Below, in pieces: positions 1 to 48,143 of a stretch of DNA of 64,000 bases; position 1 is the stretch's first letter; every line of letters begins with the position of its first letter. Under the pieces are notes generated by a model. It did no database searches. It was not told the DNA's origin and was given only the letters and a program-made list of their open reading frames with translations. The position numbers were made by a program, and so were the translations under genes. The stretch is from Escherichia phage SDYTW1-F1-2-2_3, in sequence record OR296290.1. One strand, given 5' to 3'.

Positions 1-372
1 TAAAGCCTTTGCTTCTTCCTCTCCTTCAAGAAGTGTTCCAGAACCAGAATGTAGATCATCGGGTCGAGAGAAGATTTCTTTAGGTATAAAAATATCTACT
101 GCTCCATCTTTATATCTACGACTCATCTCATTCCAAGAAAAACCAACTTGGTGCTTCTGTAGCTGTCGTGCAATTGCTATAGGGGCTTCGCATCTGAAAC
201 TAGCTTGTGGGTGGCGAAAAGGACTTACATGTCGTTCCCGAGCCAGGAAATTAATTAGACGGGTGTCACTCTCTTTTAGCTCCTCTCTTTCTACTCCCAT
301 GGTTACACGAGCAGCGTTGACTACTGTAAGATCAGAACCGAAGTTATCAATTAATGAAGCTTTGATTGTCAT
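1..372 (-). CDS. thyX: ThyX-like flavin-dependent thymidylate synthase, 5' part; gene continues past window start
   Basis: ATG at 372 with AAGGAGA SD. Manual translation MTIKASLIDNFGSDLTVVNAARVTMG...HVSPFRHPQASFRCEAPIAIARQLQKHQVGFSWNEMSRRY parallels the ThyX core, but the RHR motif reads KHQ. Confidence 0.6.
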   Translation of the reverse strand, partial: MTIKASLIDNFGSDLTVVNAARVTMGVEREELKESDTRLINFLARERHVSPFRHPQASFRCEAPIAIARQLQKHQVGFSWNEMSRRYKDGAVDIFIPKEIFSRPDDLHSGSGTLLEGEEEAKAL

Positions 373-838
373 TTATATAAGTCTCCTTGACTTTATTATA
401 TTCCCTAGAGGCTTCTTCTACGGTTGAGAAGAGTCCTATGTGCTTAGATTTAAATACCGCCCGGTAAGCAATAGAGCCGCTTTTTCTTCTATGAACAGTC
501 ACTCCAATTACTCCGGTTGATAGGTTATTACTCTGAGCTATTTTGTTGAGACCATTCCCTGACCTAGTAGTCCCTCTAAGGTTCTCTCTTTTATTATTCA
601 GTCTGTTGCGGTCTATGTGGTCCACTTCTTCAGGAAGTAATCCAGTGTCCCACCAGTAAGCAAGTCGATGAGCATAATACCTAACACCTTTATAAATGAT
701 TCTCAAATACCCATTGGTATTTACAGAACCAGCTATAGACCCTTTGTGTCCTTTTCCATAAGTTTTAACCCATCGGAAATCTCCAGTCAAGGGGTCGTAA
801 TCAAGAGCTTCTTTTATTGATGGGTCAATATCATTCAT
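347..838 (-). CDS. HNH homing endonuclease with AP2-type DNA-binding domain
   Basis: 163 aa; HRLAYWW...VDHIDRNRLNNKRENLR (HNH) then GVIGVTVHRRKSGSIAYRAVF (AP2-like). Last 8 codons overlap the thyX start. Confidence 0.7.
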   Translation of the reverse strand: MNDIDPSIKEALDYDPLTGDFRWVKTYGKGHKGSIAGSVNTNGYLRIIYKGVRYYAHRLAYWWDTGLLPEEVDHIDRNRLNNKRENLRGTTRSGNGLNKIAQSNNLSTGVIGVTVHRRKSGSIAYRAVFKSKHIGLFSTVEEASREYNKVKETYINDNQSFIN

Positions 839-853
839 CCGTGAATTTCCTTA

Positions 854-1063
854 TTAATATTCTTTTACATAATAAACCACTAAGGTTCCCATCTCTGACA
901 GTGTTGATTTATGTAAGCTTACTTTACTATAAATCTTTGGGGTCATCTTAAGAGCCTTCTTAAAACGGCGAGCATCTTTACGAGTAGCAAAGTGCTCTGT
1001 AACAGGTATAGCCGGGTCTTGGTAGAGGTAATATACCACCGTCCAATATTTTTTCATAATCAA
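854..1063 (-). CDS. small protein, VYY-tail paralog family (copy 1)
   Basis: 69 aa; shares W..v....TRK.AR..KK...(V/I)YY pattern with 2917-3532 copies. Confidence 0.45.
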   Translation of the reverse strand: MIMKKYWTVVYYLYQDPAIPVTEHFATRKDARRFKKALKMTPKIYSKVSLHKSTLSEMGTLVVYYVKEY

Positions 1064-1332
1064 ACACCTAGGGCAGTAGTTAAGAATGCTTTCAGGTTTG
1101 CTTCGGTCTGCATACCAGAGAGACTATAGTGTGCACCACTATTACGGTCAGGTACAACGAAAGCAGGGATGCTTCTTACACCATACTTAACAGCTTGTTC
1201 ACGACCATCACCTTCAAGGATGTTAATCTCTTCTACTTCTACATCGAACTCCTTAACAACCTTCTCAAAGGTAGGAACCATTGCTTTACATGGAGCACAC
1301 TGATCACTATAAAACTTAATCACTTTAGACAT
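1060..1332 (-). CDS. glutaredoxin/thioredoxin-fold redoxin (CAPC active site)
   Basis: Track ORF trimmed to ATG 1332 (MSKVIKFYSDQCAPCKAM...); CxxC near N-terminus followed by a redoxin-like fold pattern. Confidence 0.6.
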   Translation of the reverse strand: MSKVIKFYSDQCAPCKAMVPTFEKVVKEFDVEVEEINILEGDGREQAVKYGVRSIPAFVVPDRNSGAHYSLSGMQTEANLKAFLTTALGV

Positions 1333-1333
1333 T

Positions 1334-1510
1334 CTATTCCTTGTTAATAAACAGGTTGATATGACGTTGGGTAGCAGGAACAACAATAAAAGATTTATAC
1401 TGACCTTTTGCTAAGTCATGAGCAATCTTCTTTGTTTGACCAAGACCCATCACACAGCCACTAACGATAATGGCATGTGCTTGCAACTCTTCAGGGAGTT
1501 TTAGTTTCAT
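1334..1510 (-). CDS. hypothetical protein (58 aa)
   Basis: Below track cutoff; ATG 1510, stop 1334-1336; fills gap between flanking genes. Confidence 0.3.
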   Translation of the reverse strand: MKLKLPEELQAHAIIVSGCVMGLGQTKKIAHDLAKGQYKSFIVVPATQRHINLFINKE

Positions 1511-1958: not shown

Positions 1959-2522
1959 TTAGTAAGACACATCGCCACTTGAGTGGGACATGTTGCTCTT
2001 GACGAAGTAGCAATACTTGCCAAGACCTTCATTAATTTCTTGAAGCATACTCTGATCAACTGGATAAGTGGCTAAATCACCATCAAACTCATCCATCTTC
2101 TCTATAATACACATCAAGGTCATGCACATATCAGAGAGCATACCATCCATGTCTAGGTCAGCATTACCCTCTGAGAACCAAGCATGGGAGAGATAATTGG
2201 CTGCTGTAGCATCCACTTTAACACAGTGGTAACGCATACGTTCAGCAATACGATCTCCTACTTGCCGTGCGTAATCTTCCAGCTCATCAAACATACCATG
2301 AACACCCTGAAATCCTGCACCAGAGACGTTCCAGTGGTAGTTTTTAGCTTTAATATGCAAGAGTTCCATGTTAGCTTGTAAGCAGCTCAGGATGTGTTCT
2401 AGGCTGTTTCCACTAATCATACCCTGCATCGTTTCAAGGCGAGAGATTGAAAGCTCAGACCGGTCTAACATATTATAGTCGGCACGACCGATTTCAGGTA
2501 AATCAAAGACATTCTTATGCAT
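1959..2522 (-). CDS. Dps/ferritin-like protein
   Basis: NYHWNVSGAGFQGVHGMFDELEDYARQVGDRIAERM matches Dps signature region; start moved to ATG 2522 (GGAGA SD). Confidence 0.6.
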   Translation of the reverse strand: MHKNVFDLPEIGRADYNMLDRSELSISRLETMQGMISGNSLEHILSCLQANMELLHIKAKNYHWNVSGAGFQGVHGMFDELEDYARQVGDRIAERMRYHCVKVDATAANYLSHAWFSEGNADLDMDGMLSDMCMTLMCIIEKMDEFDGDLATYPVDQSMLQEINEGLGKYCYFVKSNMSHSSGDVSY

Positions 2523-2844
2523 TTGGGTTATCTCCATCAAGTTCAACTGAATTAGCAACGTTACGTTCGATGTTTGCCATTACCTGCTGGGTAATTACGA
2601 TGCAGTTCTGTGGGTCTACTGACTTAGAACGTCCCATTTCAGGGTCATACACCTTAACTCGCTTAGCAGTTGAACCTGTGACCTGAAGAACCTTCAACAG
2701 ATATCCCTGATTACCGATAGACCAAGCAACAACATCACGATTCTTGATAAAGCGACCAAGCATATCACGATGATAAAACTGTTGCATCACCTTGGATTTT
2801 GTAATCTCTTCAGTGGGCGGGGCCACTTTACTCAAATCTAACAT
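2515..2844 (-). CDS. hypothetical protein
   Basis: 109 aa; AATGTATATA motif about 38 nt upstream of ATG. Confidence 0.5.
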   Translation of the reverse strand: MLDLSKVAPPTEEITKSKVMQQFYHRDMLGRFIKNRDVVAWSIGNQGYLLKVLQVTGSTAKRVKVYDPEMGRSKSVDPQNCIVITQQVMANIERNVANSVELDGDNPNA

Positions 2845-2916: not shown

Positions 2917-3126
2917 TCAGTAGTAAATTACTTTAGACATAAAAGAACCCGAGTTAGGGTCTTCGTACCAGCGATGTATATCAGCGCTTTTTACTATTGT
3001 GCCCAGAGTCTTCAACTGTTTCTTAGCAATACGAGCCTCTTTGCGAGTGTCAAACAATTTGATGCTATCTTTTCTCGTGTGTTGATCAAGATCCCAAACA
3101 ACACGAATCGCCCACATCTTTTTCAT
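2917..3126 (-). CDS. small protein, VYY-tail paralog family (copy 2)
   Basis: 69 aa, ends VIYY; tandem with next two copies. Confidence 0.5.
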   Translation of the reverse strand: MKKMWAIRVVWDLDQHTRKDSIKLFDTRKEARIAKKQLKTLGTIVKSADIHRWYEDPNSGSFMSKVIYY

Positions 3127-3335
3127 TAGTAATGTACCTTTCCGCTGATATAAACACGACCAGAAGAATACTCCTTGGCCTTATGGATACTGATACTGTT
3201 GACCACGTCACCAGTAAGCATAGTCTTTTTAAAATCTCGAGCCTGTTGACGAGTAGGAAGTGCAGTCATAGTCATACCACCTGATGCCCACTTAATCTTT
3301 GCTAACCAAAACTGTCTCATAGTGATTGGTCTCAT
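3126..3335 (-). CDS. small protein, VYY-tail paralog family (copy 3)
   Basis: 69 aa, ends KVHY; stop/start abut neighbours. Confidence 0.5.
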   Translation of the reverse strand: MRPITMRQFWLAKIKWASGGMTMTALPTRQQARDFKKTMLTGDVVNSISIHKAKEYSSGRVYISGKVHY

Positions 3336-3532
3336 TAATAATAAACCTTGCTGTTGGCAAAAAGAGCACCTTCGTTATTCACAATAGCTTTTCCTATTGT
3401 AACCTTATTGAGTCTAAAAGTAGACTTGTATTGATTTTTGACCCTACGTGCGTGATCTCGAGTCTTAACAAAATCTAAAGCTACTAACTCTCCAGTCGTG
3501 TTATCATGTACACGAACAATCCACTTTTTCAT
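3335..3532 (-). CDS. small protein, VYY-tail paralog family (copy 4)
   Basis: 65 aa, ends KVYY. Confidence 0.5.
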   Translation of the reverse strand: MKKWIVRVHDNTTGELVALDFVKTRDHARRVKNQYKSTFRLNKVTIGKAIVNNEGALFANSKVYY

Positions 3533-3735: not shown

Positions 3736-4269
3736 TTACACACCTTTAGATGCAACCACACCTTCAGAATTATTATAACGGCCTTTCACTGCATAGGAAT
3801 GTTCCCCTGCATGAGAGTGCTCAAACATAACCATCTGACCGACACGCATACCAGCACGAACTCGTAAGCTGTGGTGTTTGGTTACATTGTGGAATTCAAA
3901 CGTCAGCTTACTGCTGTTAAATCCTGCATCTGCCCATCCGGCGTGAAGGTGGTTCAAACCACAACGAGCCATAGACGAACGCAGAACAAACAGACTTGAG
4001 ATGTTATCTGGAAGATTAAACTCCTCCATGGAGTGAGCCAAGAAGAACTGACCCGGAGTGATAACCAAACCCTCTTCAGGAATCTTTACTTCCTTCCACT
4101 GAAGATTCTCTTTCGCATCAATATCAACGATGCCATCAGCCTGTTCTTCAACAAGGATAGTATCACCAATACGGATATCCACACTAGCAGCGTTAACATA
4201 CTTATGCTCCGCATCCAGATAGCCATTATCAATTACATCGTGCAGTTCAACACTTCCTAGTAAACTCAT
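3736..4269 (-). CDS. dCTP deaminase/dUTPase-fold protein
   Basis: RSSMARCGL...AGWADAGFNSSKLTFEFHN resembles dCTP deaminase signature. Confidence 0.65.
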   Translation of the reverse strand: MSLLGSVELHDVIDNGYLDAEHKYVNAASVDIRIGDTILVEEQADGIVDIDAKENLQWKEVKIPEEGLVITPGQFFLAHSMEEFNLPDNISSLFVLRSSMARCGLNHLHAGWADAGFNSSKLTFEFHNVTKHHSLRVRAGMRVGQMVMFEHSHAGEHSYAVKGRYNNSEGVVASKGV

Positions 4270-4278: not shown

Positions 4279-5577
4279 TTAGTTATTTGTTTCCATGTCA
4301 AAAGAGATTCCACGACCCGCTTCATCGGCAAACCGAACTGTACGGGTTTGAGGCTCTAATACTTCAGGGTTGTTAGCAACAAACCGATCAGCGAGATTGC
4401 GGCTGACGGTCTCAGCTAATTCACCATGAGAAGGGACGTCAAGATCACCAACAGCGAAACCCTGACCAGAGAACTGGTGACGGCTGACAGTCAAACCATT
4501 TGATTGACCATTAGAACGTCTAGACAACCACCGCTCAAATGAATCGCCAGTAACACCAAGAGCTTCTTCAAAAGATGTTCTACGAGTAGAGCTTAGATTT
4601 CGTGCTTCGTTTGCTCGACGTCTTGCAGGGGCTACAAACACCCCTTCAACTGCATTGTGTCGGTTAGGTTCATCTTCCCGACCAAGGAGATCTCCTCCTG
4701 TATTGGTTGTTAAGTTTGTTAACCCTTCAGACCAATACGCACGAATCTGACTAGAGCCATTAACACTTGACATTAACTGAATCTCTTCGTAAGGGATTCC
4801 AAAGAATCGACTCATGTCTTGGTCAACACAATATTGAGGACTTGCTGTGTCGCCAATAAGAGATACTTGACCTTGACTATTAACCAGATCCCTGACCATT
4901 TGAGGTATAGGTTGTTGCCGAGCATGTGCCATATAATGAAAAGCAACTCCCGGGGTTTGGAACCTTAACACTTGTGAGTTAGGCCACTTCTTGTGGACAT
5001 ATTTAATCTCTCGAGCAGTCACAACCACTGGAATTGGAGAAGTCATAGCCAAGTATCCATGAACGGTCATGAATAGCTTATCAAGAGTCATAGCACCACG
5101 ACACATCATAGGAAAATTACCCAATACCTCTTCAATAGAAGTAGGATAATTAAACATGAATTGGATACGAACCCCATTCCACTGAAACTCAATGATATCA
5201 GTGAATGTTAATTGAGAAGTTCCTGTGTATGGCTCATCTGTAGCTTCAGCAAGAAGGGATGAATACTCAATATCTTGTGATTCAAGCCATTCCTTCACGT
5301 TACTTTCAATCTCTCTTCCAAGAGCTTGCCAACGGTCAGTTGGGATGAACATGTTTTGAGTTCTTGGTGTTTGTCCTCTGACAATAAAGATATCAATGTC
5401 ATGTGGAGCTGTGTTATTAAGCACAGCATCACGAACAGCCCCACCAGTAATGAGGGGACAGATACCGTCTGGAACCAAGTTGTTGTTAATCAACTGTTCA
5501 ATGAAATGACGACCAACAGTAATATCAGGTTGTTGAGCAACCTTATCTTCAATTCGGTTAATCGGAATAACAATCAT
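4279..5577 (-). CDS. Pol-beta superfamily nucleotidyltransferase (CCA-adding / poly(A) polymerase-like head)
   Basis: Start set to ATG 5577 (MIVIPIN...), 1 nt after exonuclease stop. Motif GGAVRDAVLNNTAPHDIDIF matches the GGxVRD...DxD NTase signature. Confidence 0.6.
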   Translation of the reverse strand: MIVIPINRIEDKVAQQPDITVGRHFIEQLINNNLVPDGICPLITGGAVRDAVLNNTAPHDIDIFIVRGQTPRTQNMFIPTDRWQALGREIESNVKEWLESQDIEYSSLLAEATDEPYTGTSQLTFTDIIEFQWNGVRIQFMFNYPTSIEEVLGNFPMMCRGAMTLDKLFMTVHGYLAMTSPIPVVVTAREIKYVHKKWPNSQVLRFQTPGVAFHYMAHARQQPIPQMVRDLVNSQGQVSLIGDTASPQYCVDQDMSRFFGIPYEEIQLMSSVNGSSQIRAYWSEGLTNLTTNTGGDLLGREDEPNRHNAVEGVFVAPARRRANEARNLSSTRRTSFEEALGVTGDSFERWLSRRSNGQSNGLTVSRHQFSGQGFAVGDLDVPSHGELAETVSRNLADRFVANNPEVLEPQTRTVRFADEAGRGISFDMETNN

Positions 5578-5578
5578 T

Positions 5579-6133
5579 TTACATTTTCCAATATAATGAA
5601 GGTGGGTCGTAAGGGTCAAATCCTGTGAGTTCACACAAGTATTTATAAACCTTAACGGTTAAGTTAACGTCCTGTTCACAATAAGTAAACATATCTTCAG
5701 TGAAAGCATCCCATGCTTCCTCTTGCTCACCGTAATCACCTTTAAGTTCCTCTAAGAACTCACCCCATTGCTTCAAGCCATGACCTCTTGGGCCATGTCT
5801 AGGGTCACCTTTCGGGTACTCAGGACTGTCACCAATACGGTCAGGTTTAAGATATCGACTAAGACATAGAGTGTCGAAGACGTTAAAATGATATTTAATC
5901 AGATTGGGATACATCTTCTTCAGAGCACAAAGGTCGAAGTCAATAATATTATGACCTACTAGCACATCAGCTTCTGTAAGTTTACGAATCCCATCTTCAA
6001 TTTGGTGAGGCCGATAGCCCCACCTTTCACCAGTTTCAACATCGAAGATGTAAATACACCACACTTTAGTTATGTCATCGTACAGTGCATTACTCTCGAT
6101 ATCAAATGCAAACACTTTCTTTTTCTTTACCAC
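5579..6133 (-). CDS. DEDDy-type 3'-5' exonuclease
   Basis: GTG start; Exo I FDIES, Exo II HNIIDFD, Exo III YCEQD motifs. Confidence 0.7.
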
Positions 6134-7917
6134 GGTGAAGCTCCATCTGCTTGATTGACGAGAGAAGCTGCATCCTCTCCGTTAGTCAAAACGAATGGAT
6201 TATCTTCATCAACTTCAAAGTCTTCCCTTTCTACAAGTCTACCGGTTTCGCTGATATACTTAGTATAGCAGACACCCGTCTGACCGTAGTTACGTTCTTT
6301 CAGTAACCGAATGACTGAGAGGTTCTTAGCTAAGCCGTCAGCTTGCTTGTCACGCTCAAAGCCAATGATACACTGACACCAACGCATAAGGGAACGAGAG
6401 CCAGTGAACTGCACTTCACGTACCTGTCCACCTTCTTCATGAGGGGCACCACCTGCCGGAGCATTAAGGTGAGATAGCACGAAAGCGGTAAAGTCTAACT
6501 CTTTACACATACCAGCAAGCTCAGAAGCAATCTTACTGATTTCAGTGTTAATCTCTGAAGGTGTTAAATGAGACACCAGAGCGGTAATGTTATCAAGGAT
6601 GATAAACTTACACTGGTTTTCAACTACCCAGAAACGGATACACTGTTTAATGTCTTCCCATTCGTTCTGCCCAAAGTTGTCATATAAGAAGAATTTATCT
6701 GCATAACGAAGTGCTTCATTACGCAAATCCTCCTCGTCATATTCAACATCGGGTCGGTGGAAAGGAATTGATGCTGACTTACCAGCGATGTTCTTAACAG
6801 ACATGCCTACCTTCTCTTCCAAGAAGAAGCCACCCCCATTAAAACCATGCTCTAAGCACAGATGAGCAACCAGCTCGTGAGCAATTAGTGTTTTACCACT
6901 ACCTACACCACCACCGATTGCTACCACCTCTCCCCATCGAATACCGAAGGTCATCTCGTTCAGAGTTTTCCACGGATATGGGATACCCCACTCCGCTTTC
7001 TTCAGAGCATCATCAAGGCAATCGAAGATTGTTACAGCGCCAGCAGGAGATTCTCGCTTTGCTGAATACTTAAGGATATTGAATAACTCTTGACCACGAC
7101 CAGACAGAAGCATGTCATTCGCATCCTTAATTTCTTTCTCCACACCGTTGTATGGGAAAGTTCCTTTAGGGATACGAGCAAACTTGACATGAGGGAATAA
7201 AGAACGACCTTTTGTTAAAGCTATCTCACCTGCATCGTCGTTGTCCATGCAGAGCACAACCTCCTCAAAACCATTTACGAAGTCTCGATTACGAGACAAC
7301 ACAGAAGAGATTGAACCTGCACCGAACGGTAAAGAAACACATGCTGGTTTAATGTTTGTTGCATTTGTAAAAGCTGTAAGGACATGGAAACCAGACATAC
7401 AAGATAGCGGGTCTTCAAAAATGAATAGCTTCTTGTTGTACACATCTCCACGCTGAGCCTGTGCCATACCAAATAAATCTGCTTCTTTCACACTGCCAAC
7501 GTAATAGAACTTCTTACTGTCAAGCAGCTTAACCTCATAACCGACAATGTTTCCATCACGTTCACGAGGAAAGAAGTAGCTGTCTGGAGTCTGACCATCA
7601 GTCTGACTTAGACCAATGCGACACTCAAAACGCTCTGATACGGCTTTAGGTATTAAACGTCGAGTAAGTTCACCCTGAGGAAGTTCTAAGCAATCATCTA
7701 AGACTTCTCTTAACTCTTCAGGGGATAACTCTTTCTTCTCGTTTGGAGTAGGTGTAGTGCCCTTTTCGAACACTTCGTAATTCCCACAACGGTTACAACT
7801 TCCCCACTCCTCACCTGTCTCTTCGTTACGGAAGAGAATCATGTGGTTGTGGGTTTTATCACGACCATGAGAGATACATTCCTTACAACCTGTGTCTCCC
7901 AAAATGATCTTTGACAT
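6127..7917 (-). CDS. primase-helicase (T7 gp4-like)
   Basis: N-terminal Cys4 zinc ribbon (CKEC...CNRCG), central primase region, C-terminal DnaB-type helicase with Walker [10 protein letters not shown]. Confidence 0.85.
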
Positions 7918-7943: not shown

Positions 7944-8147
7944 TTAGTAGAACGAACGAATTTCATCCCACACTTGTTCCTGTTCTTTCCTATAAAAAGA
8001 AAGTTGGGTCTTGAACATCTCCACTGATGATTCAAAGTTTTTAGATTGTGCAGCTTCAACGAAACGTTCATGTCGGTTGATTTTGCACCGTAGCATTAAA
8101 TACTTGGCTTCAAGTCTCCGAAGAGCCTGTCTTTTCTCAAGATTCAC
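7944..8147 (-). CDS. hypothetical protein (67 aa)
   Basis: Track ORF in gap between helicase and GGCT genes. Confidence 0.4.
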   Translation of the reverse strand: MNLEKRQALRRLEAKYLMLRCKINRHERFVEAAQSKNFESSVEMFKTQLSFYRKEQEQVWDEIRSFY

Positions 8148-8556
8148 TTTTCAGATACTCTGACCAGTCGCCAGATTCAACCAGAACGTCTTGTTCTTCG
8201 TCAATGTGATAAATCCAAGCGATAACAGTTTCACCTGAGTCCAGCTTAACGGCAATCTGGGTGCGTTGATAGAAGCTGTCTTCAGGGCTACGTTTGTTGT
8301 AACCTTCCAGTCGGTCATATGGGCCTTCCAGACCTGCTTTGTCAGTAGCAAACACTTCTACACGAACAGGCTTATTGTTATTGCTGTGTGCAAGAGAGAT
8401 GCTTGGGAAGTAGGAACCACCATAACGGAACAGATCAAAGTTGTCTTCAGTCCAACCTTCACCAATTGACTTAGCACCAGCTCGGTCATTAACTAGATAA
8501 TTAGCTTGACCACGACGAAGAGAACCATAAGTTGCTACGTAAATTACTTCTGACAT
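8137..8556 (-). CDS. gamma-glutamyl cyclotransferase (AIG2/GGCT-like)
   Basis: VATYGSLRRGQANY N-terminal motif plus downstream EG...Y pattern typical of the GGCT fold. Confidence 0.6.
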   Translation of the reverse strand: MSEVIYVATYGSLRRGQANYLVNDRAGAKSIGEGWTEDNFDLFRYGGSYFPSISLAHSNNNKPVRVEVFATDKAGLEGPYDRLEGYNKRSPEDSFYQRTQIAVKLDSGETVIAWIYHIDEEQDVLVESGDWSEYLKSES

Positions 8557-8625
8557 TATCTATACCTTTGTTGGTTTGTTTAGTTTATCCGAACTAGCCT
8601 CCTATCTCAAAGAGGCTAGAGCAGA

Positions 8626-8811
8626 TTACTCTGTAATAAAGATTTTAATCACACCGCAGATTACTTCATCATTAAAAGAAGCAACAACTTCTTTATCCTG
8701 ACAGAACTCTACTTTACCATTATAAGAGTTGAAGTAGTCAGCGTCAATATCCATTGCTCGCATTTCGCCAGCTGCATTGGTGTCTTTAAACAGAACTTTA
8801 TACTTATTCAC
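8626..8811 (-). CDS. hypothetical protein (61 aa)
   Basis: Track ORF, leftward, abuts next gene. Confidence 0.4.
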   Translation of the reverse strand: MNKYKVLFKDTNAAGEMRAMDIDADYFNSYNGKVEFCQDKEVVASFNDEVICGVIKIFITE

Positions 8812-9056
8812 AGATATGTTACTCCCTTGTCTTGTTGTGCTTCAGAGATGATACGTTCTACGCATTCCATAGAGTATTTATCACCACGTTTTAGGAAAGT
8901 TACAATTGCAGAGAATTGATTACCAATCATTCGCTGATTAGTAATACCCCACTCCTCACACAATTTACGCAACTCTTTACGAGAGCCTACAATAAGAGGC
9001 TCTTTTTGTTCCATCATTCCATTTTGTACTAGATCTTCCAATGAAAACATATCCAT
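8808..9056 (-). CDS. hypothetical protein (82 aa)
   Basis: Track ORF with 4-nt overlap to downstream gene. Confidence 0.45.
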   Translation of the reverse strand: MDMFSLEDLVQNGMMEQKEPLIVGSRKELRKLCEEWGITNQRMIGNQFSAIVTFLKRGDKYSMECVERIISEAQQDKGVTYL

Positions 9057-9062
9057 ATATCC

Positions 9063-10259
9063 TTAGTAGTTTACAACAGTGCCATCATTCAGGGTAAGGC
9101 TATTAATCTGCAACACACGACCAAGCTGACGATCGCTAATCGGTGCGTTCCAGCCAGAGCGGTAGAAGTTACGACCACAGAAGAACAAGATCACATTACT
9201 TGCTACAGTCGAACCGTTTTCAGGATGCTTGATGTTAGCGATATAATAACCACGACGCAGATTACGACGGGTTACCGGGTTGATCTCTAACCCTTGTTCT
9301 TCAACTTGCATTGTTTCAGGAACAGGCTCCGAAGACTCTTCAGCAACTGGCTCGGCTGCCAATGCAAAGTTCTCATCACCTGCTGATTCAGCAAATTCTT
9401 CTTCCACTTCTTCAACAGGCAGTTCGTAAGCAACACGGTAGTCAGGATCAACACCAGAGAAGCTCTTAACAAACTCAACAATATTGTGAGTATAGGTTTC
9501 CAGAGTTGTTCCAGTCAGTCCCGGAGCTGTATTGACTTCCAGAACCCAAGCGTTAGTTCCTTTGCTAATCAGATCAACAGCACCGAAGTTCAAACCCAGA
9601 GCAGATACAGCTTTGTGAGCTTGAATCAGAACTTGATCAGGAGGTGCTTCAGTGAAGGCGTTAGAATAAACCCAACCAGTGTGGTGGTTGCGAATATCTT
9701 CACGATAACTTTCCAATTCACGATAACCGTTACGACGAATCTTCTTCTGAACGTAAGTGATAACACCCTCAAACACATGAACACGCCATTCACGACGTGG
9801 GCCTTGGATACCTTTGGTGTACAGAGGAGCATCTGCAACACCTTCTCGTGTAAGACGAACAGTAATACCTTCTCCAGAGTGACCAGTTAAGGTTCCACGT
9901 TCATAAACAATTTCATTCCGGTTCCAGTTCTGAGCTACTTCACGATCGATGGTGTATTCAACAGTTTTGACTTCAGCTAAACGCAGTGCGTTAAATGCTG
10001 CAACTTTGTTAGCCGCTCGGTTCAAGGCAACCACAGAGTTCAACACAGTTGCGCCACCGAAGAAAGAATCGTTGTATCGACGGTTTCCGTAGTTGACAAC
10101 AATATCACCAACCCGAGAACGATAACGAGAACCCTCTGATACCAGAGACATTACGTTAGCATTTAAGCGAAGTTCCTGAATCTTAGTGTTAATTGCAGAA
10201 GTAAGTTCACGAACTGAATCAGAAGGGCCATAAGGAAGAACACGGATACGAGTAGTCAT
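9063..10259 (-). CDS. ATP-grasp ligase (RimK-like)
   Basis: ALGLNFGAVDLISKGTNAWVLEVNTAPGLTG matches ATP-grasp C-terminal motif; acidic C-terminal extension. Confidence 0.7.
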   Translation of the reverse strand: MTTRIRVLPYGPSDSVRELTSAINTKIQELRLNANVMSLVSEGSRYRSRVGDIVVNYGNRRYNDSFFGGATVLNSVVALNRAANKVAAFNALRLAEVKTVEYTIDREVAQNWNRNEIVYERGTLTGHSGEGITVRLTREGVADAPLYTKGIQGPRREWRVHVFEGVITYVQKKIRRNGYRELESYREDIRNHHTGWVYSNAFTEAPPDQVLIQAHKAVSALGLNFGAVDLISKGTNAWVLEVNTAPGLTGTTLETYTHNIVEFVKSFSGVDPDYRVAYELPVEEVEEEFAESAGDENFALAAEPVAEESSEPVPETMQVEEQGLEINPVTRRNLRRGYYIANIKHPENGSTVASNVILFFCGRNFYRSGWNAPISDRQLGRVLQINSLTLNDGTVVNY

Positions 10260-10261
10260 TG

Positions 10262-10486
10262 TTAGATACCTTTAAGTTTAAGAATTTCGTTACGAGTTTT
10301 TTGAATCTGAGCTTCAATTTCGAAGTAGTCGTTGAACGCATCGTTCTCTACTTCATCGGATGGTGCATCAATCAGACCGAAAGCGAACGGATACAGCTTC
10401 CGCTGCTCCGTTACTAATTCGATATGAACTCCTATATAATACTGTAGGAGAGTGATCTTTGGTTTCTTAGGAACCAGATTTGACAT
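10262..10486 (-). CDS. hypothetical small protein (74 aa)
   Basis: Between ATP-grasp and GAT-II genes. Confidence 0.4.
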   Translation of the reverse strand: MSNLVPKKPKITLLQYYIGVHIELVTEQRKLYPFAFGLIDAPSDEVENDAFNDYFEIEAQIQKTRNEILKLKGI

Positions 10487-10700
10487 GAGGTTCTACCTTA
10501 ATGCCTTTGATTTTTACATAATCAGCAAGTACGTTATTGATCACCGTTGGGAAAGGAACCTCAACCTGTGTCTCAAGTACTTGACCAATACCAGCTTGCA
10601 TCCACTTCTGGATTGCACGAAGGTTATCACATCCTGTGCTCGTCATCGGGATACGTCGAGTAGTTACAACGTTATCCAGCATCATCTTACGAATTTCCAT
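10467..10700 (-). CDS. hypothetical small protein (77 aa)
   Basis: Immediately downstream of the GAT-II gene. Confidence 0.4.
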   Translation of the reverse strand: MEIRKMMLDNVVTTRRIPMTSTGCDNLRAIQKWMQAGIGQVLETQVEVPFPTVINNVLADYVKIKGIKVEPHVKSGS

Positions 10701-10702
10701 AC

Positions 10703-12733
10703 TTAACCTCTATTCAATGAACATTTAGGAGAATTACAATAAACTTGATTCATAGAACCAAGCGTACAACTTTCAGCATCGCGCCACGGAATCTGCTTAA
10801 AACACTCTGAGCAGTAGCCGAGGGTTGACCACATGGCTTTGGTGAAGTCAGTGCTTCGGTTTCCGTCGAAGCTGACAACAGTTTTGCGGAGAGCTGTTCG
10901 TGATTCAGGAAACACACCTGCTTTCTCAGCAGGTTCCTCCTTTTTTGGCTTAGTTGAGATTGCAAAAATACTGTTGCTACGTTTCTCAACATAAGCATCA
11001 ACAACATCCTCCAGAGTGATGCCTGTCTGTTTCGCTGAGGAAGGTAATACAGTCATACGACCGATCATATCTTCAGTTACACGTAAAGCAAACTCAGGAC
11101 GACGGGCGTTTGTTGTATCTGTTGCTTTAATCCAGACATAACCATCTTTGATCGTAGCATTAGATACCTTCTTCTTTACATCTACAGCGCAGACTTTACA
11201 GATATCTTCACCACGAAGACGACTAAGTTCTTCATCGAACTCATTCTCCGTTTTAACTTCACCGCAGATTTCACAAACACCAATAGGAGTTTCCTCCTCT
11301 TCTTCATCTTTAGGTTTAGTCAAACCTTCCAGACATTCAGGGTGCCAGTAGCATTGATATGCGAAGACTGCTTTAGGTGCATCCTTCCAATCAATGTGTT
11401 TGTCACAACCACCGCAATCACCATGAGAGTGTGCTTCCCAGAATTTACGAGTGATAGTAACGCCATTCTTGTTGACGAAACTATCATTCATATCAAAAGG
11501 GATATCATCATCGAAGTCAGCAGTAGTAGACTCAGGCTCCTTTTTCTCCAGAGATGGGTCAACAAAACGACCTGCTGTGATTACTAAACGAACCATAGCA
11601 TTAACTTCGGAGATGCAGGATACTGTCCCACGGTAAACGATTTTAGGGTCTTTCAGGGCATCCTGATAAGCCTTAATGTCTACGTTATGAACATCGCCTT
11701 CAATATACTCTTGAGACTTCTCATCGTAGATATAACCAATCATCTTACCACGAGAAGGAACAGCACCAGCTGTTGCATAAGGAACAAACTCATGTGGTGT
11801 GATTTCCACAGTCATGTCGCGGCGAATGTCAATGTTTCGATCGCTTGCGATTTTGTTTTGACTTACCACTGCGTTTCTTCGACGAACGTCTGCCGCTGTC
11901 ACTCCCGGCTTCGTGTCGTAAGGATTGCTTGTACTGCTTTTTGAGGAACTTTGATAATTGCTTTGGCTGTAGTTGTTCGAGTAGTAATTGCCCCAACGAT
12001 TGATTACCGTAAAAACCGGAAGCTCGTGGGCGACCTCTTCAACTAGAGTCATACTGTTGTTTGACATATCAAAGATATATTCTGTACCAACTTTACATTC
12101 AAAGTGCTCATCAATTCGGTTTTTGTGAGACTTAGAACGCTTCAGAATCCACATCAACATGTCTTCTTCAGAAGCACCAAACCAATCTCTGTTACAACGT
12201 GCGAGATGGAAAGGACGCTCTTCATTACGGATGATATGAAGGCGGTTATCAGAAGCATCATGCCAGATTAAGGTGAAAGCACCATCCAGCTTTTGAATAG
12301 TCTCTGCTGCACCAATAGTGTTAATAGAGTGGCAGATGTTCTCACTGTCTACCTCGAAGTTTTTGCTGTCAGGTAACAGATCTTGGTCCATCAAGGTTCC
12401 GTTATGAACCAGAGTGATGTTACCATGTTGGAAAGGATGGGCGTTCTTGGCGTTAACTGCACCTTTCGTTGCATGACGGCTGTGACCAACAATCCATGAA
12501 GGCGCTACAGTGTAAGCTGTTTCACCAGTGGTGTGTTTCTTGTACTCATCTTGAAGGATGAATGCGAAAGAAGGAAGTGCCTCTTTATAAGTGAAGACTT
12601 CCTTAGTGCTCTTACGCTGACCAAAGATACCAGAGGAATGTTGCCCTCGGAATACCCCAGCATAAAAGAGTTGGTTAAATACGTCTAAATCAGTGCTTGA
12701 CAGATTACCGCCAGCTAATACGATGCCACAAAT
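10703..12733 (-). CDS. class-II (Ntn) glutamine amidotransferase with Cys-rich C-terminal region; probable AUU start
   Basis: Frame open upstream of track start to 12736; manual translation (I)CGIVLAGGNLSSTD...GHSRHATKGAVNAKNAHPF is a GAT-II Ntn domain. No ATG/GTG/TTG precedes Cys; AGGTGG SD lies 7 nt before ATT. Confidence 0.65.
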   Translation of the reverse strand: MCGIVLAGGNLSSTDLDVFNQLFYAGVFRGQHSSGIFGQRKSTKEVFTYKEALPSFAFILQDEYKKHTTGETAYTVAPSWIVGHSRHATKGAVNAKNAHPFQHGNITLVHNGTLMDQDLLPDSKNFEVDSENICHSINTIGAAETIQKLDGAFTLIWHDASDNRLHIIRNEERPFHLARCNRDWFGASEEDMLMWILKRSKSHKNRIDEHFECKVGTEYIFDMSNNSMTLVEEVAHELPVFTVINRWGNYYSNNYSQSNYQSSSKSSTSNPYDTKPGVTAADVRRRNAVVSQNKIASDRNIDIRRDMTVEITPHEFVPYATAGAVPSRGKMIGYIYDEKSQEYIEGDVHNVDIKAYQDALKDPKIVYRGTVSCISEVNAMVRLVITAGRFVDPSLEKKEPESTTADFDDDIPFDMNDSFVNKNGVTITRKFWEAHSHGDCGGCDKHIDWKDAPKAVFAYQCYWHPECLEGLTKPKDEEEEETPIGVCEICGEVKTENEFDEELSRLRGEDICKVCAVDVKKKVSNATIKDGYVWIKATDTTNARRPEFALRVTEDMIGRMTVLPSSAKQTGITLEDVVDAYVEKRSNSIFAISTKPKKEEPAEKAGVFPESRTALRKTVVSFDGNRSTDFTKAMWSTLGYCSECFKQIPWRDAESCTLGSMNQVYCNSPKCSLNRG

Positions 12734-12812
12734 TTTCTAATCCACCTGAAGGGTAAACCCTTTCATCTAATTAACCTTTAAATTGTGCCCCTTTGCCAGA
12801 GGCACCCATTGA

Positions 12813-13916
12813 TTACAGCGCTTGCTCTAACTGATTTTCCAGATGATCTGGAATGTACCCTGTGATGTTGTTATCACTGTGTCCTGACTCACGTAGCAAG
12901 TCAAAAATAGCACGGATACGTTGCTCTGGTGCAGATCGTACAGTAGATAGATCGGTAGTACGAAGCATAACCAGAATCTCTTGGTACAAGTTGTTAGCGT
13001 TCCCTCGGACATATCCAAGGAATCCGTAGAAGTCTGAGATATGACGTAGGTCAACAAGAACTTCTCCGTTGGAGTTGGTTCGACGTAAACGAATACGACC
13101 AGACTGTTCTACTTCATGAGAACGACAATACAAAACATCACGGGCCATACAATACCCTGAATGCAAGTCCGACTCGTCCAGATTGTAATCCAGAGGAAGG
13201 TAAGGAAGCATTGGGGCAAATCGTACAGTATTTAAATGCTCGATAAACTGATCATTGCTCATCTCTGCGTTATCTAAAGCCAGCTTCTTCAACATCAAGA
13301 AGCGGTTAACCAGATTGAGAAGTTGACCACGTTTCCACTTAGGCTCACTGATACGGAACTCAATCGAACCATATTGGGCAAGTGGCAGAAGGTTCAGAGA
13401 TGTATATTTATCCCATGAACGAACCAGACGGTTGAAGAACTCTTCATCGTCGTAGTTAAATGCGTCAGAGGCATTCATTACCTGTGCTTGTACCACTGCG
13501 AAAGCAGGGCAGAAGTTGCTACGGTAACGATGGTAGCCTGAACACTTGAACAACATCTTTTCATAGAAGGTCCAAGCGAGAATGGTTTTCTTGAGGATAT
13601 TACTATCAGCATCCCTCATATCCATATGAACGTGAGTAGAGCAACGCCAAGTCCCCTCGGCGTGCGATTCAGCTACAGCTTCACTCAGGTTGTTGATAGC
13701 GTCTAACAACTCCTGTCCGTTGTAAGGTCGTGAACATACCATTTCACAACCATTACGCAGGGAACCATCCTCTGTACAATCCCACATATCTGCTTCGATA
13801 TGATCGGAACCTTCGAGTTCAAGTTCAATACCGACACCGCACTGAAGTGCAATTGAACTATGCGCCTCAGTTAAATGACCTTCTCGATATCCAAAAGTTT
13901 GCGCTACAGTTGTCAT
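12813..13916 (-). CDS. amidoligase (glutamine-synthetase-like)
   Basis: GVGIELELEG...DGSLRNGCE...CSTHVHMDMRD pattern of GS-like amidoligases. Confidence 0.6.
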   Translation of the reverse strand: MTTVAQTFGYREGHLTEAHSSIALQCGVGIELELEGSDHIEADMWDCTEDGSLRNGCEMVCSRPYNGQELLDAINNLSEAVAESHAEGTWRCSTHVHMDMRDADSNILKKTILAWTFYEKMLFKCSGYHRYRSNFCPAFAVVQAQVMNASDAFNYDDEEFFNRLVRSWDKYTSLNLLPLAQYGSIEFRISEPKWKRGQLLNLVNRFLMLKKLALDNAEMSNDQFIEHLNTVRFAPMLPYLPLDYNLDESDLHSGYCMARDVLYCRSHEVEQSGRIRLRRTNSNGEVLVDLRHISDFYGFLGYVRGNANNLYQEILVMLRTTDLSTVRSAPEQRIRAIFDLLRESGHSDNNITGYIPDHLENQLEQAL

Positions 13917-14530
13917 AATGAATCCACCAACGTAATATTGTAATTGCTAAGGTTTTCAGAAATGTGATGAAAGTGTTCCAGAAGTCGCATCGGTTGCTGA
14001 CCGTAAGAGTCACGAGGCGCTTCCAGATCTACTTGTCCTACCAGTGCACCTTTATAATGCACCTTACCATCAGTAGGGTTGATGTAAATATAACGAGTGA
14101 CCAATCCTTCGAATTCAGGATTGAACAGACTGTAAACCATCTCCCCGGAGATAGCACGACCAACACCCGGAGCATTTCGAATCTTGTTACCCATCAAACC
14201 CTTTGCTCTCTGACGAACAGGGTTAATATGAGTCCAGCTTACAGTGTTACCGTTATGGAACAGATAACCAACATCAGGTGATTCAAGAATCAAGGTTGGG
14301 TCGAACACTGGAATATTCATCGTAGTATTTCGAAGATTCCCTTGCTCGTTCTTGTACCACTGCTCTACAACAAAGTACAGAGCCTGTTCTGCTTCGTGAG
14401 AGAAGTCATCACTGCGGAAGTTACCGCTCTGCTCAACACCAATCACAAAACACGGAAGGTTGATATTACCTGCTCGTTTAGCAATCCATGTACCATTATA
14501 GTAATGAGAAAAATCAGCTACTAAGCTCAC
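13913..14530 (-). CDS. hypothetical protein (205 aa) within ligase cluster
   Basis: Track ORF, 4-nt overlap with upstream gene; no motif recognised. Confidence 0.5.
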   Translation of the reverse strand: MSLVADFSHYYNGTWIAKRAGNINLPCFVIGVEQSGNFRSDDFSHEAEQALYFVVEQWYKNEQGNLRNTTMNIPVFDPTLILESPDVGYLFHNGNTVSWTHINPVRQRAKGLMGNKIRNAPGVGRAISGEMVYSLFNPEFEGLVTRYIYINPTDGKVHYKGALVGQVDLEAPRDSYGQQPMRLLEHFHHISENLSNYNITLVDSL

Positions 14531-14539
14531 GATAACCTC

Positions 14540-15349
14540 TTATGCTACCTGAAGGAGTTTGATCTGCTGGTCAGCTTCTTTAACGTTGTTGCCGTTAATG
14601 ATTTCATGAAGCTTCTCAATCGGAAGGCGAGAGTGCAATGCCATCAGAGTGGACATATCACACTGCTGAACAACCTTGTCAACCTGATCGTAAACAAACT
14701 TACGATTTTCACGATCACTAATCCAGAAATTAGACAGTGAACGATATTCAATACCGTAGTCTTTATAACGGATTGCAGACGCTTTACCGTAGAGTTCTTT
14801 ACGGCGAGTATCTTTATCCATAATAACTGCTGGAAGAGATAGGAAGTAATCACACAACACACCCAGCATCATCTGAGTTTGCAGAGTGATATCCAAAGCA
14901 CCAACTACGCCGAGATGTACGTGACCACCGGCAGTACGAAGTCCCTTATTCTGAGAAGTCGGGGATGGGTTCTTCTGACCAGTGAAAGCGTTGAAATCAG
15001 GAGTGCATCCGAAGATGAACGCTGATTCATTGAAAGTCTTCATCTCTTCTTCAGTGAAGATGTGAGAGCTAACACCCGGAGCTGTTTCCATGTCCAGTTT
15101 GTTCAGGACATTGTTGGTGAGATCGATACCACGTTGCATGTTATCGTTAAACGCTTCAAAGCCGCTCTGTGGGTCAATATCAAACTCAGCCAGTACGTTG
15201 TCCTCTTGAAGACGAACATCCTTAGCCAGAGTGATCTTATCGTCCTTAGAACAACCTAACAGACCAGCTACAGAGGTGATAATACCATTGCTGGTACGAA
15301 CGAACATTTCCGGGTCGCTTCCTATTAAGAATTTACGTTTAGTAGTCAT
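14540..15349 (-). CDS. amidoligase-like paralog (269 aa)
   Basis: FLIGSDPEMF ... AGGHVHLG parallels the G-x-E-x-E and HVH motifs of 12813-13916; weak. Confidence 0.45.
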   Translation of the reverse strand: MTTKRKFLIGSDPEMFVRTSNGIITSVAGLLGCSKDDKITLAKDVRLQEDNVLAEFDIDPQSGFEAFNDNMQRGIDLTNNVLNKLDMETAPGVSSHIFTEEEMKTFNESAFIFGCTPDFNAFTGQKNPSPTSQNKGLRTAGGHVHLGVVGALDITLQTQMMLGVLCDYFLSLPAVIMDKDTRRKELYGKASAIRYKDYGIEYRSLSNFWISDRENRKFVYDQVDKVVQQCDMSTLMALHSRLPIEKLHEIINGNNVKEADQQIKLLQVA

Positions 15350-15816
15350 GCTTTAGTCCAACCTTTATGAGATAGATAGTTTTTAAATCTGCCACTGTGC
15401 ACAGCGCCCATGTGGCCTTGATGTAAGTCGTTGCTTCTACAGAAGTCTCTAAGATTGTATATTGTTACAACCTCGCCATCTGGAGATCTAAACTTCCAAA
15501 ATCTAGCATTCCCTTTCACAGCGTTTTCTTCACTGGTCAGAAGTTGGAAATTACTTGGGTGGTTATTAAGTTTATCACCATCGATGTGATCAACAGTCAT
15601 ACCATCCGGAATAGGTCCAATAAACAATTCATACATAAGTCTATGTAATAAAAAGTTCCTTGTTATCTTTTCAGGGGCTTGCACTGTTGTAAACTTTAGA
15701 TAACCATCCTTATCAGGAAACAGTTTCCTCTGTTTCCCTGTTCTTGAATGGAATATACTACCATCTTCGAACACTAAGAAGGTAGCAACTCCGACTACTA
15801 ACTCCCTAAATTCCAT
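15346..15816 (-). CDS. HNH homing endonuclease
   Basis: HRLMYELFIGPIPDGMTVDHIDGDKLNNHPSNFQLLTSEEN HNH core. Confidence 0.7.
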   Translation of the reverse strand: MEFRELVVGVATFLVFEDGSIFHSRTGKQRKLFPDKDGYLKFTTVQAPEKITRNFLLHRLMYELFIGPIPDGMTVDHIDGDKLNNHPSNFQLLTSEENAVKGNARFWKFRSPDGEVVTIYNLRDFCRSNDLHQGHMGAVHSGRFKNYLSHKGWTKA

Positions 15817-15843
15817 AGGAAGGAGCCAATAAGGAAAGCGCGC

Positions 15844-16815
15844 TTAGTCATTGTAATACTCCACTAATTCAGAAAAGAGAGATGAGATTGTGTTACCAAC
15901 TTCTTCAAGAGTAAGACCGGAATCTGCTCCAGTTCTTTGAATCAGTCGGGCTGTAAAGTTTTGTACTGTAATGTTTCCCAACTTGTCGTCTATTGCTTCA
16001 CGTTTGTGACCATAACAGTTGGACCAGAGTCTTAACCACTCTGACATTGTTTCATACTCGTCCGGGTCTTGATCTTTAGCACGAGCAAATCTTCGTAAGG
16101 CATCTTGGTTATGGTTACGAACATAACCATTCTCGTTGTCGCCAACACCGAAGGGGTTTTGAACCCATACTTGCTTCGTGTATTCATCAGAGTCTACAAC
16201 CAAAGGAAGGAATGCTGCTGCTGACATATTGTTATTAACAACAATAGAGGTGCTCTCGCTACTCCCATTGGCTCTTCCTCGTTGAGACCACCCACCGAAG
16301 AAGTCACGACCCAACCCAGCTAACACTAGAGCGATGCCGATGCGTTTACGCTTCAGCCACTCTTCCCTGTCTTCAATTCCTTCTGCTAGGAAATCCATTC
16401 CACGATACTGCCCTTCCAGAATACTACGGAAAAGCATAAGTCCTGTGAAGATCTGATCTGCTGGATGCTCACGGAGGTTGACAGCAACACTATTCGCTGA
16501 AGTGATTGTAAATACGTCACGATAGCAAGACATAGAGTTCATAATGTCTGCTGTTTCAACCAAGTTCTTTTCAATATCAGATGCAACATGACCGTGAAAA
16601 GAGTGAGTCCAGTAATTCAACATCTCCAATTGCAAGTTGATATCACGGTTGAAGCGTCTATAATGCCTCTCTCCCATGATAACTTCACCATTAACATCAG
16701 TTACGCACTGGCCTTGCATGTAGTTGTGGATACCGAAGCATCCACGACCTAAGAACTTCTGTTCCCCTAAATCTTGTTGAAGACTCAGAGGTACGATCGT
16801 TGTGGAGATTGACAT
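15844..16815 (-). CDS. hypothetical protein (323 aa)
   Basis: Long ORF, no motif recognised. Confidence 0.5.
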   Translation of the reverse strand: MSISTTIVPLSLQQDLGEQKFLGRGCFGIHNYMQGQCVTDVNGEVIMGERHYRRFNRDINLQLEMLNYWTHSFHGHVASDIEKNLVETADIMNSMSCYRDVFTITSANSVAVNLREHPADQIFTGLMLFRSILEGQYRGMDFLAEGIEDREEWLKRKRIGIALVLAGLGRDFFGGWSQRGRANGSSESTSIVVNNNMSAAAFLPLVVDSDEYTKQVWVQNPFGVGDNENGYVRNHNQDALRRFARAKDQDPDEYETMSEWLRLWSNCYGHKREAIDDKLGNITVQNFTARLIQRTGADSGLTLEEVGNTISSLFSELVEYYND

Positions 16816-16825
16816 AACTAACCTT

Positions 16826-18022: not shown

Positions 18023-18033
18023 TATACCAACCT

Positions 18034-18396
18034 CTATTGGTTTTTAATCAACTCAATCGACTTACGGATATAAAGAATATCTCGGAAGTTTCGATAGTTG
18101 TTCATAAATTGGTGCTTCTGGAAAGTAGCTTCTTCCAGAGCTTTCTTTGCTTCTGTGTAGTTTTTACGGGCAAGATGTACAACCCGCTCTGGTAACACAT
18201 TTGCATGACGGATGACATACTTGTGAGCTTTCATGTTGCTTTGCTCACGAGTAATCTTACCTTTAGCAACTTTGATACCATTTGCAATCCAAGCAAGTTC
18301 TTGCTCAAGCTCATCGTTGGACATTCCACCGAGATTTGATGCAACCTTGTTCAGAGTTTCAATATTAACGTTGCCCTTAATGGGACGTGTATTCAT
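18034..18396 (-). CDS. hypothetical protein (120 aa)
   Basis: Track ORF. Confidence 0.45.
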   Translation of the reverse strand: MNTRPIKGNVNIETLNKVASNLGGMSNDELEQELAWIANGIKVAKGKITREQSNMKAHKYVIRHANVLPERVVHLARKNYTEAKKALEEATFQKHQFMNNYRNFRDILYIRKSIELIKNQ

Positions 18397-18398
18397 AC

Positions 18399-18626: not shown

Positions 18627-18778
18627 TATCTGTGGATAACCTGCTCTTAAAATATCTATCCGACGGATGTTTGAGGATTATTCCTCGCCCTAGCATCGGC
18701 CCCATACGGGAAATATATTAAGATTAGGTTAGTTGAGTTAGAATAACTCACATAGCCCTCCGAAGAAGGCTATAGGCG

Positions 18779-48134: not shown

Positions 48135-48143
48135 GGAGGAATT

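Follow-up and report, generated by a model that had tools for sequence, protein, structure and literature searches.

From our analysis of a 64,000-nt stretch of Escherichia phage SDYTW1-F1-2-2_3 (OR296290.1; hereafter the window, whose positions are used as coordinates), the gene at 4279..5577 on the minus strand encodes a nucleotidyltransferase (NTase) of 432 aa, orthologous to gp73 of phage phiEco32, which is an accessory and rapidly diverging enzyme inside an otherwise highly conserved replication module. Judging from profile comparisons, it appears to be a distant offshoot of a superfamily of phage-specific NTases to which the anti-Gabija protein Gad2 also belongs, and we tentatively favour a role in countering host defences. 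The gene itself is already known; RefSeq lists it as a 'nucleotidyltransferase' and two papers mention it (PMC4281155, PMC11990801). Our analysis adds that its labelling as a CCA-adding enzyme is unjustified, that the DNA polymerase of the lineage is not missing, that the gene is accessory and a hotspot of extreme divergence, and that its product shares superfamily membership with Gad2.

An accessory gene in a conserved replication module

In the order of transcription, the module consists of a T7 gp4-like primase/helicase (6127..7917, minus strand; DnaB_C and Toprim matches, phrog_239), a stand-alone DEDDy 3'-5' exonuclease of 184 aa that corresponds to phiEco32 gp74 (5579..6133, minus strand; PF01612, phrog_403, phrog_38876), the NTase (phrog_12715, E 2e-228), and a dCTP deaminase (3736..4269, minus strand; PF22769, E 3.5e-34). 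Translation of the 432-codon frame with its stop (5577..4279) confirmed GGAVRDAVLNNTAPHDIDIF at residues 45-64, from which a preliminary description of this DNA had proposed a Pol-beta-type NTase, and the placement of the gene beside the primase/helicase (7917-6127) was likewise correct. The NTase ATG follows the TAA stop of the exonuclease gene after a single base, as had been described. Translational coupling of the two genes, proposed on that ground, is plausible but not specific to the exonuclease-NTase pair, because neighbouring operon genes are packed equally tight. In all relatives that were examined, the exonuclease and NTase genes lie close together, with anything between an overlap of 4 nt and a gap of 23 nt at the junction.

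About 100 E. coli podophages of the phiEco32-like group (Gordonclarkvirinae, genus Kuravirus) match this region of the window at 92-95% DNA identity. The NTase has conserved counterparts in about 100 phage records, and its Kuravirus orthologues are 78-93% identical. Its own family, PHROG 12715, is named 'nucleotidyltransferase'. Compared with the phiEco32 gp73 family (e.g., SU10 gp74 and the proteins of Bas86-93), the window protein is orthologous, of the same length class, and in the same slot, with nothing essential different; the gene is highly polymorphic, and the window carries one of its alleles. In phage SU10, the orthologue is placed among the early gene products and one peptide of it was detected by mass-spectrometry proteomics (PMC4281155). 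An exhaustive hidden Markov model (HMM) search of 1.84 billion representative proteins returned only 31 clusters at E<1e-10; the distant family members were drawn from this search and from an alignment query, and the word-index search returned close relatives only. In every context sampled, drawn from three ICTV genera and from four metagenomic lineages with identities as low as 25%, the order primase/helicase, exonuclease, NTase, dCTP deaminase was retained. The enzyme is missing from sister phages that have the same module: the NTase slot holds a 51-aa ORF in Aeromonas phage BUCT695, nothing in Salmonella phage 7-11, and unrelated small ORFs in LUZ24. The NTase is therefore an accessory insertion that stands outside the replication core.

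We then compared the divergence of the NTase with that of its neighbours. Between genera, the NTase is only 31-34% identical, in contrast to 94% for the primase/helicase, 79-88% for the exonuclease, and 93-96% for the dCTP deaminase. The NTase is under purifying selection (dN/dS 0.20-0.27), whereas the corresponding values are 0.004-0.007 for the primase/helicase, 0.008-0.03 for the dCTP deaminase, and 0.02-0.11 for the exonuclease; within Kuravirus, the dN of the NTase is 50-100 times that of the primase/helicase. Along the NTase gene, nucleotide identity is depressed and rises again where the gene ends at its 3' side, and between genera the drop starts slightly earlier, in the 3' end of the exonuclease gene. 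The dS within the NTase gene is raised and uneven; between the window and the relative 172-1 it is 0.59 over codons 1-205 and 0.13 over codons 271-432, with 0.11-0.23 in the flanking genes. This unevenness suggests allele exchange by recombination with a breakpoint inside the NTase gene.

Fold, motifs and tail of the nucleotidyltransferase

The protein appears to be built of a folded NTase core (residues 1-225; 4903..5577, minus strand), which comprises a class-II-like head and a small helical part, and a disordered tail rich in R, G, S, E, and N (residues 271-432; 4279..4767, minus strand). A first AlphaFold model had a folded N-terminal part with pLDDT below 50 over residues 270-432; when an alignment of 33 homologues was supplied, the N-terminal 270 residues reached a pLDDT of 89.8 and a pTM of 0.85. 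The alpha/beta NTase fold is present, and Foldseek places the protein closest, among solved structures, to CCA-adding enzymes of class II and to poly(A) polymerases; the Pol-beta-type assignment is upheld. Sequence similarity to these enzymes is confined to a short segment. The Pfam scan gave a single sub-threshold match to the PolyA_pol head domain (PF01743; residues 43-126, 20.4 bits against a cut-off of 23), and the orthologues score 18-21.7 bits against the same gathering threshold. A PDB sequence search with the single protein returned no relevant match, and the family profile aligned 26 residues to CCA enzymes, i.e., motif A only. Scans of the NTase against NCBIfam and PADLOC gave no matches, and no profile of the CD-NTase/cGAS-DncV type or of another defence NTase matched it.

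Invariance was scored over 33 diverse members sharing 24-37% identity with the window protein, and 14 positions are invariant: M1, G45, G46, R49, D50, D60, D62, F64, Y117, I128, Q139, P156, Y193, and K197. Motif A (ITGGAVRDAVLNNTAPHDIDIF, residues 43-64; 5386..5451, minus strand) contains seven of them, from G45 to F64, and the Pol-beta signature of hG[GS] followed after 9-13 residues by Dh[DE]h is represented by G45-G46 and D60-I-D62-I. Further on, Q139 lies on the beta-strand VRIQFMFNYPT (residues 136-146; 5140..5172, minus strand), which by the order of secondary structures is expected to bear the third acidic residue of the active site. Small phage NTases and Gad2 share the hQhM motif of this strand. 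On the adjacent strand, position 130 (E130) is occupied by E, Q, D, N, or S, and residue 99, at the end of a helix, is always E or D. The motif F155-P156-x-x-C159 (5101..5115, minus strand) is common to the F(D/P)xxhC of Gad2-like NTases in the alignments, and the helix Y193-x-x-K196-K197 (4987..5001, minus strand) contributes the last two invariant residues.

The tail has a pI of 5.4 and, for all its predicted disorder, is still under purifying selection (dN/dS 0.26-0.48). Its middle varies among alleles by insertions and deletions, and the conserved blocks are WSEGL, RRTSFEEALG, and the C-terminal ~30 aa, the last of which is kept in an allele without the middle of the tail. These short blocks may be docking-type motifs. 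Among 27 distinct C-termini of the family, 17 have an aromatic residue (W, F, or Y) in the last five positions (e.g., IRWQW, GGWTF, TTWDW, RRFNF, and EYDF), as counted by eye and uncorrected for phylogeny. Such aromatics are commoner than a disordered sequence would predict and resemble the docking tails of the T7 replisome, in which aromatic tails dock gp2.5 and gp4 on the polymerase.

Relationship to Gad2 and the small phage nucleotidyltransferases

The anti-Gabija activity of Gad2 (Gabija anti-defence protein 2) has been verified: its deletion makes phage SPbetaL7 sensitive to Gabija, a Brevibacillus homologue is sufficient to neutralise Gabija, and an NTase domain was predicted in it by AlphaFold (bioRxiv 10.1101/2023.05.01.538930). 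Several Kuravirus orthologues of the window NTase carry precomputed matches to the Pfam family PF26128 'Gad2' (on P0007 flagged as 'weak', E 1e-5 to 1e-3), and such precomputed matches are absent from more distant members of the gp73 family. The weakest matches of our HMM search were phage proteins of 190-290 aa, two of which have unflagged PF26128 matches (E<=1e-5). With Gad2 represented by an alignment of nine sequences, built from verified and listed homologues in the supplementary table of the Gad2 authors, hhalign related the gp73 family to the small NTases (99.45%, E 4.6e-22, 166 columns), the small NTases to Gad2 (98.7%, E 3.8e-16), and the gp73 family to Gad2 directly (90.6%, E 1.3e-6, 104 columns). 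The direct alignment covers motif A, the hQh(M/I) strand, and F(D/P)xxhC. The PHROG matches form a similar chain, as the window NTase matches phrog_12715 and phrog_1614, Gad2 matches phrog_18122, 4400, and 1614, and the intermediates match all of these. Many of the top viral structural matches in BFVD are 'poly A polymerase head domain' proteins of 170-250 aa from lytic podophages.

The window NTase is thus like Gad2 (PF26128; SPbetaL7 ORF159 and the Brevibacillus laterosporus homologue) in being a phage-borne protein with a Pol-beta-type NTase core, and the motifs hAGG, DxDhF, hQh(M/I), and F(D/P)xxhC are common to the two. It is not a Gad2 orthologue, because its GGAVRD loop, N-terminal extension, and disordered tail differ and the folded C-terminal domain of Gad2 is absent; the hhalign match stops at about column 130 of Gad2. 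The two proteins are about 17% identical, and Gad2 resides in an anti-defence locus of temperate Bacillus phages, whereas the window NTase is part of a replication module. The stand-alone 'poly A polymerase head domain' NTases of 170-290 aa (PHROG 1614 and 4400), known from lytic phages such as LKD16 (ORF16), Aeromonas phiAS7, Vibrio VEN, and Pectobacterium PP2, have the same core and motifs but neither the ~35 N-terminal residues nor the long disordered tail of the gp73 type. Some of them keep Asp where the gp73 family has Gln. One is ORF16 of Pseudomonas phage LKD16, a phiKMV-like phage, in which this 199-aa member of the superfamily is encoded between the replicative helicase and the DNA ligase (L018, 9703-10302) and has Asp in alignment with Q139, a position where Gln is invariant in both the gp73 and the Gad2 family.

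A possible counter-defence role and its alternatives

We consider it a serious possibility, just short of an even chance, that gp73-type NTases are counter-defence nucleotidyl-transfer enzymes. In such a mechanism, a catalytic core of ~225 residues, descended from the head domain of class II enzymes (CCA/poly(A) polymerase) and followed by a disordered tail of ~160 residues, would bind an NTP or dNTP with Mg2+ through the G-G/R-D loop and D60-x-D62. The nucleotide would be transferred to a nucleic-acid 3'-OH, which is the simplest acceptor, or to another acceptor, the tail would dock the enzyme to a partner protein, and the infection would be shielded from a host defence which, like Gabija, recognises DNA ends or nucleotides. 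An anti-defence role had been among the suggestions of the preliminary description; the remote homology to Gad2 and the evolutionary behaviour of the gene lend it support, and the function itself is what we infer from them. An invariant active site in a fast-changing protein is the pattern expected of an enzyme that faces a changing partner. Gordonclarkvirinae are unusually resistant to restriction-modification and to other tested defences, no gene for DNA modification or anti-restriction is known in them, and the BASEL study names the dCTP deaminase-NTase locus as a suspect for the restriction resistance (PMC11990801).

Several observations weigh against a counter-defence role. The relationship to Gad2, as judged by alignment, is remote; against a single Gad2 sequence motif A alone aligns, Gad2 has GGxITS where the window NTase has GGAVRD, and the ~200-aa folded C-terminal domain of Gad2 (about residues 200-400) is replaced by a disordered tail. 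The mechanism of Gad2 is described as unknown in a 2026 review (PMC12904381); therefore, homology transfers at best a biological role and no reaction. With Gln at the probable third-carboxylate position, classical two-metal polymerisation may not apply. The fast divergence could also stem from relaxed constraint on a non-catalytic surface, and the fixed slot in a replication/nucleotide-metabolism module, together with the small NTase between helicase and ligase in LKD16, fits a role in DNA metabolism equally well. A more specific version of the counter-defence role, which we regard as fairly improbable in its full form, is that the NTase is tethered by its tail to the T7-like replisome and caps, extends, or marks the 3' ends of phage DNA with a non-templated nucleotide, thereby blinding defences that sense ends or nucleotides (Gabija, OLD-family nucleases, and RecBCD-linked systems). 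If true, this would provide the first reaction mechanism for the Gad2-related NTase superfamily and would explain part of the defence resistance of Gordonclarkvirinae.

The alternative to which we give the most weight, even if we think it unlikely, is that the NTase is a replisome enzyme of DNA metabolism or modification, which nucleotidylates or extends the ends of phage DNA or, in concert with the dCTP deaminase, contributes to the synthesis of a non-canonical DNA component; the counter-defence and DNA-modification readings overlap if the target is a DNA end. Its invariable slot between the exonuclease subunit and the dCTP deaminase, beside the primase/helicase, would suit such an enzyme, as would the placement of the related 199-aa LKD16 protein and the aromatic C-termini (17 of 27) that resemble T7 docking tails. 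It would also account for the restriction resistance of these phages along the lines of the BASEL authors' speculation, in which covalent DNA modification was proposed (PMC11990801). Over the whole window, the short palindromes CCWGG (7 observed against 84 expected), GATC (153 against 245), and GAATTC (8 against 21) are strongly avoided, in contrast to GATATC, the EcoRV site (24 against 14 expected), and the EcoKI site (10 against 6.6 expected); as the latter two are not avoided, site avoidance alone fails to explain the restriction resistance, which needs another explanation. Nevertheless, the sister phages have the same replication module without an NTase, the replication proteins of the module are very strongly constrained and the NTase is not, the phage encodes ThyX, so that replacement of T by dU is unlikely, and we know of no DNA-hypermodification pathway that uses an NTase of this kind. 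An even less probable alternative, to which we give very little credence, is a catalytically dead or merely nucleotide-binding scaffold or decoy that acts through the disordered tail. The invariant Gln at the presumed carboxylate position, the unconserved E130 on the neighbouring strand, and a tail with short linear motifs that makes up nearly 40% of the protein would be in keeping with it, but G-G, R49-D50, and D60-x-D62 are strictly invariant in a very divergent family, which is hard to reconcile with an absence of nucleotide and metal binding, and the same set of motifs is kept in the Gad2-like relatives.

Two further roles, which the preliminary description had set side by side, were not borne out. 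In one of them, the NTase would be a minimal CCA- or A-adding enzyme that mends tRNA ends damaged by defence systems, or a polymerase of the poly(A) type by which host RNA is tagged for degradation, and we regard this as unlikely. It draws on the motif A of the class II type (GGAVRD...DxD), on the presence of a tRNA gene in the phage, and on several databases that call the orthologues 'class II CCA-adding enzyme-like'. The tRNA gene is real: ARAGORN found a tRNA-Arg(TCT) at 21745..21821 on the minus strand, which ends in ...GGTGCGCCA. This gene lies 16 kb from the NTase gene and its 3' end reads GCG-CCA, so its CCA is encoded; a phage tRNA that needs CCA addition is thus ruled out, and E. coli encodes its own CCA enzyme. 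Compared with class II NTases (CCA-adding enzymes and poly(A) polymerase I), the window NTase superposes over only 142-165 of about 400 residues, falls below the PF01743 threshold, and has no sequence alignment beyond the ~26 residues of motif A. Class II enzymes select the ribose and the base through neck motifs, namely an RRD-type motif B and an EDxxR-type motif D; in the 33 aligned members, no conserved counterparts of these were found, and the only invariant residues after motif A are Y117, I128, Q139, P156, Y193, and K197, with Gln at the likely position of the third acidic residue. The helical body and tail domains that hold tRNA or RNA are absent and a disordered region takes their place, in agreement with the earlier observation that no HD or tRNA-binding domain follows motif A, which our family scans upheld. 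The tblastn matches for the NTase did not include Privateer-type relatives, which carry an RtcB ligase and several tRNAs. The NTase is most probably not a CCA-adding enzyme, and the label 'class II CCA-adding enzyme', common in databases, misrepresents the gp73 family.

In the other role, the NTase would be an unconventional replicative or primer-extending DNA polymerase that is partnered with the adjacent exonuclease, for which its tight packing against the proofreading exonuclease and the primase/helicase and the want of a polymerase gene within the window could be cited. The window indeed has no family A polymerase, as had been stated, since tblastn with the polymerase of 172-1 gave no real match. 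A canonical polymerase does, however, exist elsewhere in the lineage. The complete genome of the relative 172-1 encodes a 614-aa family A polymerase at 48052-49896, about 8 kb downstream, with a PF00476 match and the motifs DGSGLELR, KTFIYAFNYGAG, and HDEGQF; the same arrangement was seen in metagenomic relatives, and the polymerase is found at this distance in all relatives. The window maps to 172-1 from 54.1 kb, over the genome end, to 41.5 kb and leaves about 12 kb uncovered; PolA is not in the window because its position in 172-1 falls inside this uncovered part. With PolA located outside the window, a role of the NTase as a stand-in for a missing replicase falls away. The exonuclease, by contrast, is evidently the split-off proofreading subunit of an ordinary T7-like family A polymerase. 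Its identification as a DEDDy enzyme is upheld by the ExoI DxE (FDIES), ExoII NxxxD (HNIIDFD), and ExoIII YxxxD (YCEQD) motifs and by a match to PF01612 (DNA_pol_A_exo1) above threshold (36.6 bits, cut-off 23.6, E 5e-9). Its identity with the exonuclease domain of T7-type polymerases is about 30%, phrog_403 and phrog_38876 are named 'DNA polymerase exonuclease subunit', and phiEco32 gp74 is annotated as 'type I DNA polymerase, contains 3'-5' exonuclease domain'. The layout resembles the split family A polymerases of LUZ24/PaP3-like phages, in which the exonuclease gene comes right after the primase/helicase and the polymerase domain is encoded kilobases downstream; in LUZ24-type relatives, the same exonuclease is labelled 'DNA polymerase part I', and, unlike in gp73-bearing phages, it is followed by small unrelated ORFs and not by an NTase. 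The NTase itself lacks equivalents of fingers and thumb, and the architecture of family X or other DNA polymerases (palm with fingers and thumb, 8-kDa domain, primer-template binding) was not found in it. It is also absent from sister phages, and the PolA gene of the lineage effectively refutes a replicase role.

The counter-defence reading bears on more than this one locus. If it is correct, the enzyme would help to explain the resistance of Gordonclarkvirinae to restriction and most other tested defences, which is relevant to the choice of therapeutic phages; if the NTase instead modifies phage DNA or DNA ends, it would represent a new type of phage DNA chemistry. The wider superfamily of small phage NTases is common in lytic phages and uncharacterised, and the gp73 family offers a tractable entry point in E. 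coli because the BASEL phages Bas86-93 plate on a K-12 derivative with restored O16 O-antigen. The evolutionary signature of the family is very clear, as the active site never varies whereas the rest of the gene diverges about 100 times faster than the genes beside it.

Regulatory signals and neighbouring genes

Every gene in the first ~30 kb of the window is on the minus strand, and scans for promoters and terminators near the NTase gene gave numbers at chance level. A sigma-70-like TTGACC-18-TATATT at 5590-5619 (minus strand), within the 3' end of the exonuclease gene, would leave a leader of ~6 nt before the NTase ATG; the scan gave 14 such sites in total against 13.5 expected, which is chance level. 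The phiEco32 middle/late promoter consensus TAATGTATA occurs at 40288 and 57795 only, and none is near the NTase locus.

Downstream of the locus, four paralogous ORFs of 65-69 aa are present on the minus strand (854-1057, 2917-3126, 3126-3335, and 3335-3532), three of them in tandem just after the dCTP deaminase gene. They are 23-29% identical, have invariant W5, T25-R26, A29-R30, K33, and a C-terminal Tyr, and are hypothetical proteins in the relatives. Genes for a Dps/ferritin-like 'DNA-binding protein' (1959-2558, minus strand) and a thioredoxin (1060-1386, minus strand) are also found downstream. The thioredoxin probably serves the T7-like polymerase as its processivity partner, by analogy with the role proposed for thioredoxin in phage Privateer (PMC7881722).

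Upstream of the primase/helicase (8137-20000, minus strand), the window encodes a gamma-glutamyl cyclotransferase (8137-8556), an ATP-grasp/RimK-like ligase with a long acidic extension (9063-10259), and a 563-aa protein with Cys-rich repeats (10703-12394). Relatives add genes for an amidoligase, a COOH-NH2 ligase, and a glutamine amidotransferase to the cyclotransferase/ATP-grasp cluster, which also precedes the primase/helicase in LUZ24. Genes for HNH-type homing endonucleases, one of which is at 347-838 (minus strand) in the window, have been inserted at differing points of the replication/nucleotide-metabolism module among the relatives (L014, 13998-14489; L015, 2708-3190; L016, 5266-5682); in phage 7-11, an HNH gene lies between the primase/helicase and the exonuclease.

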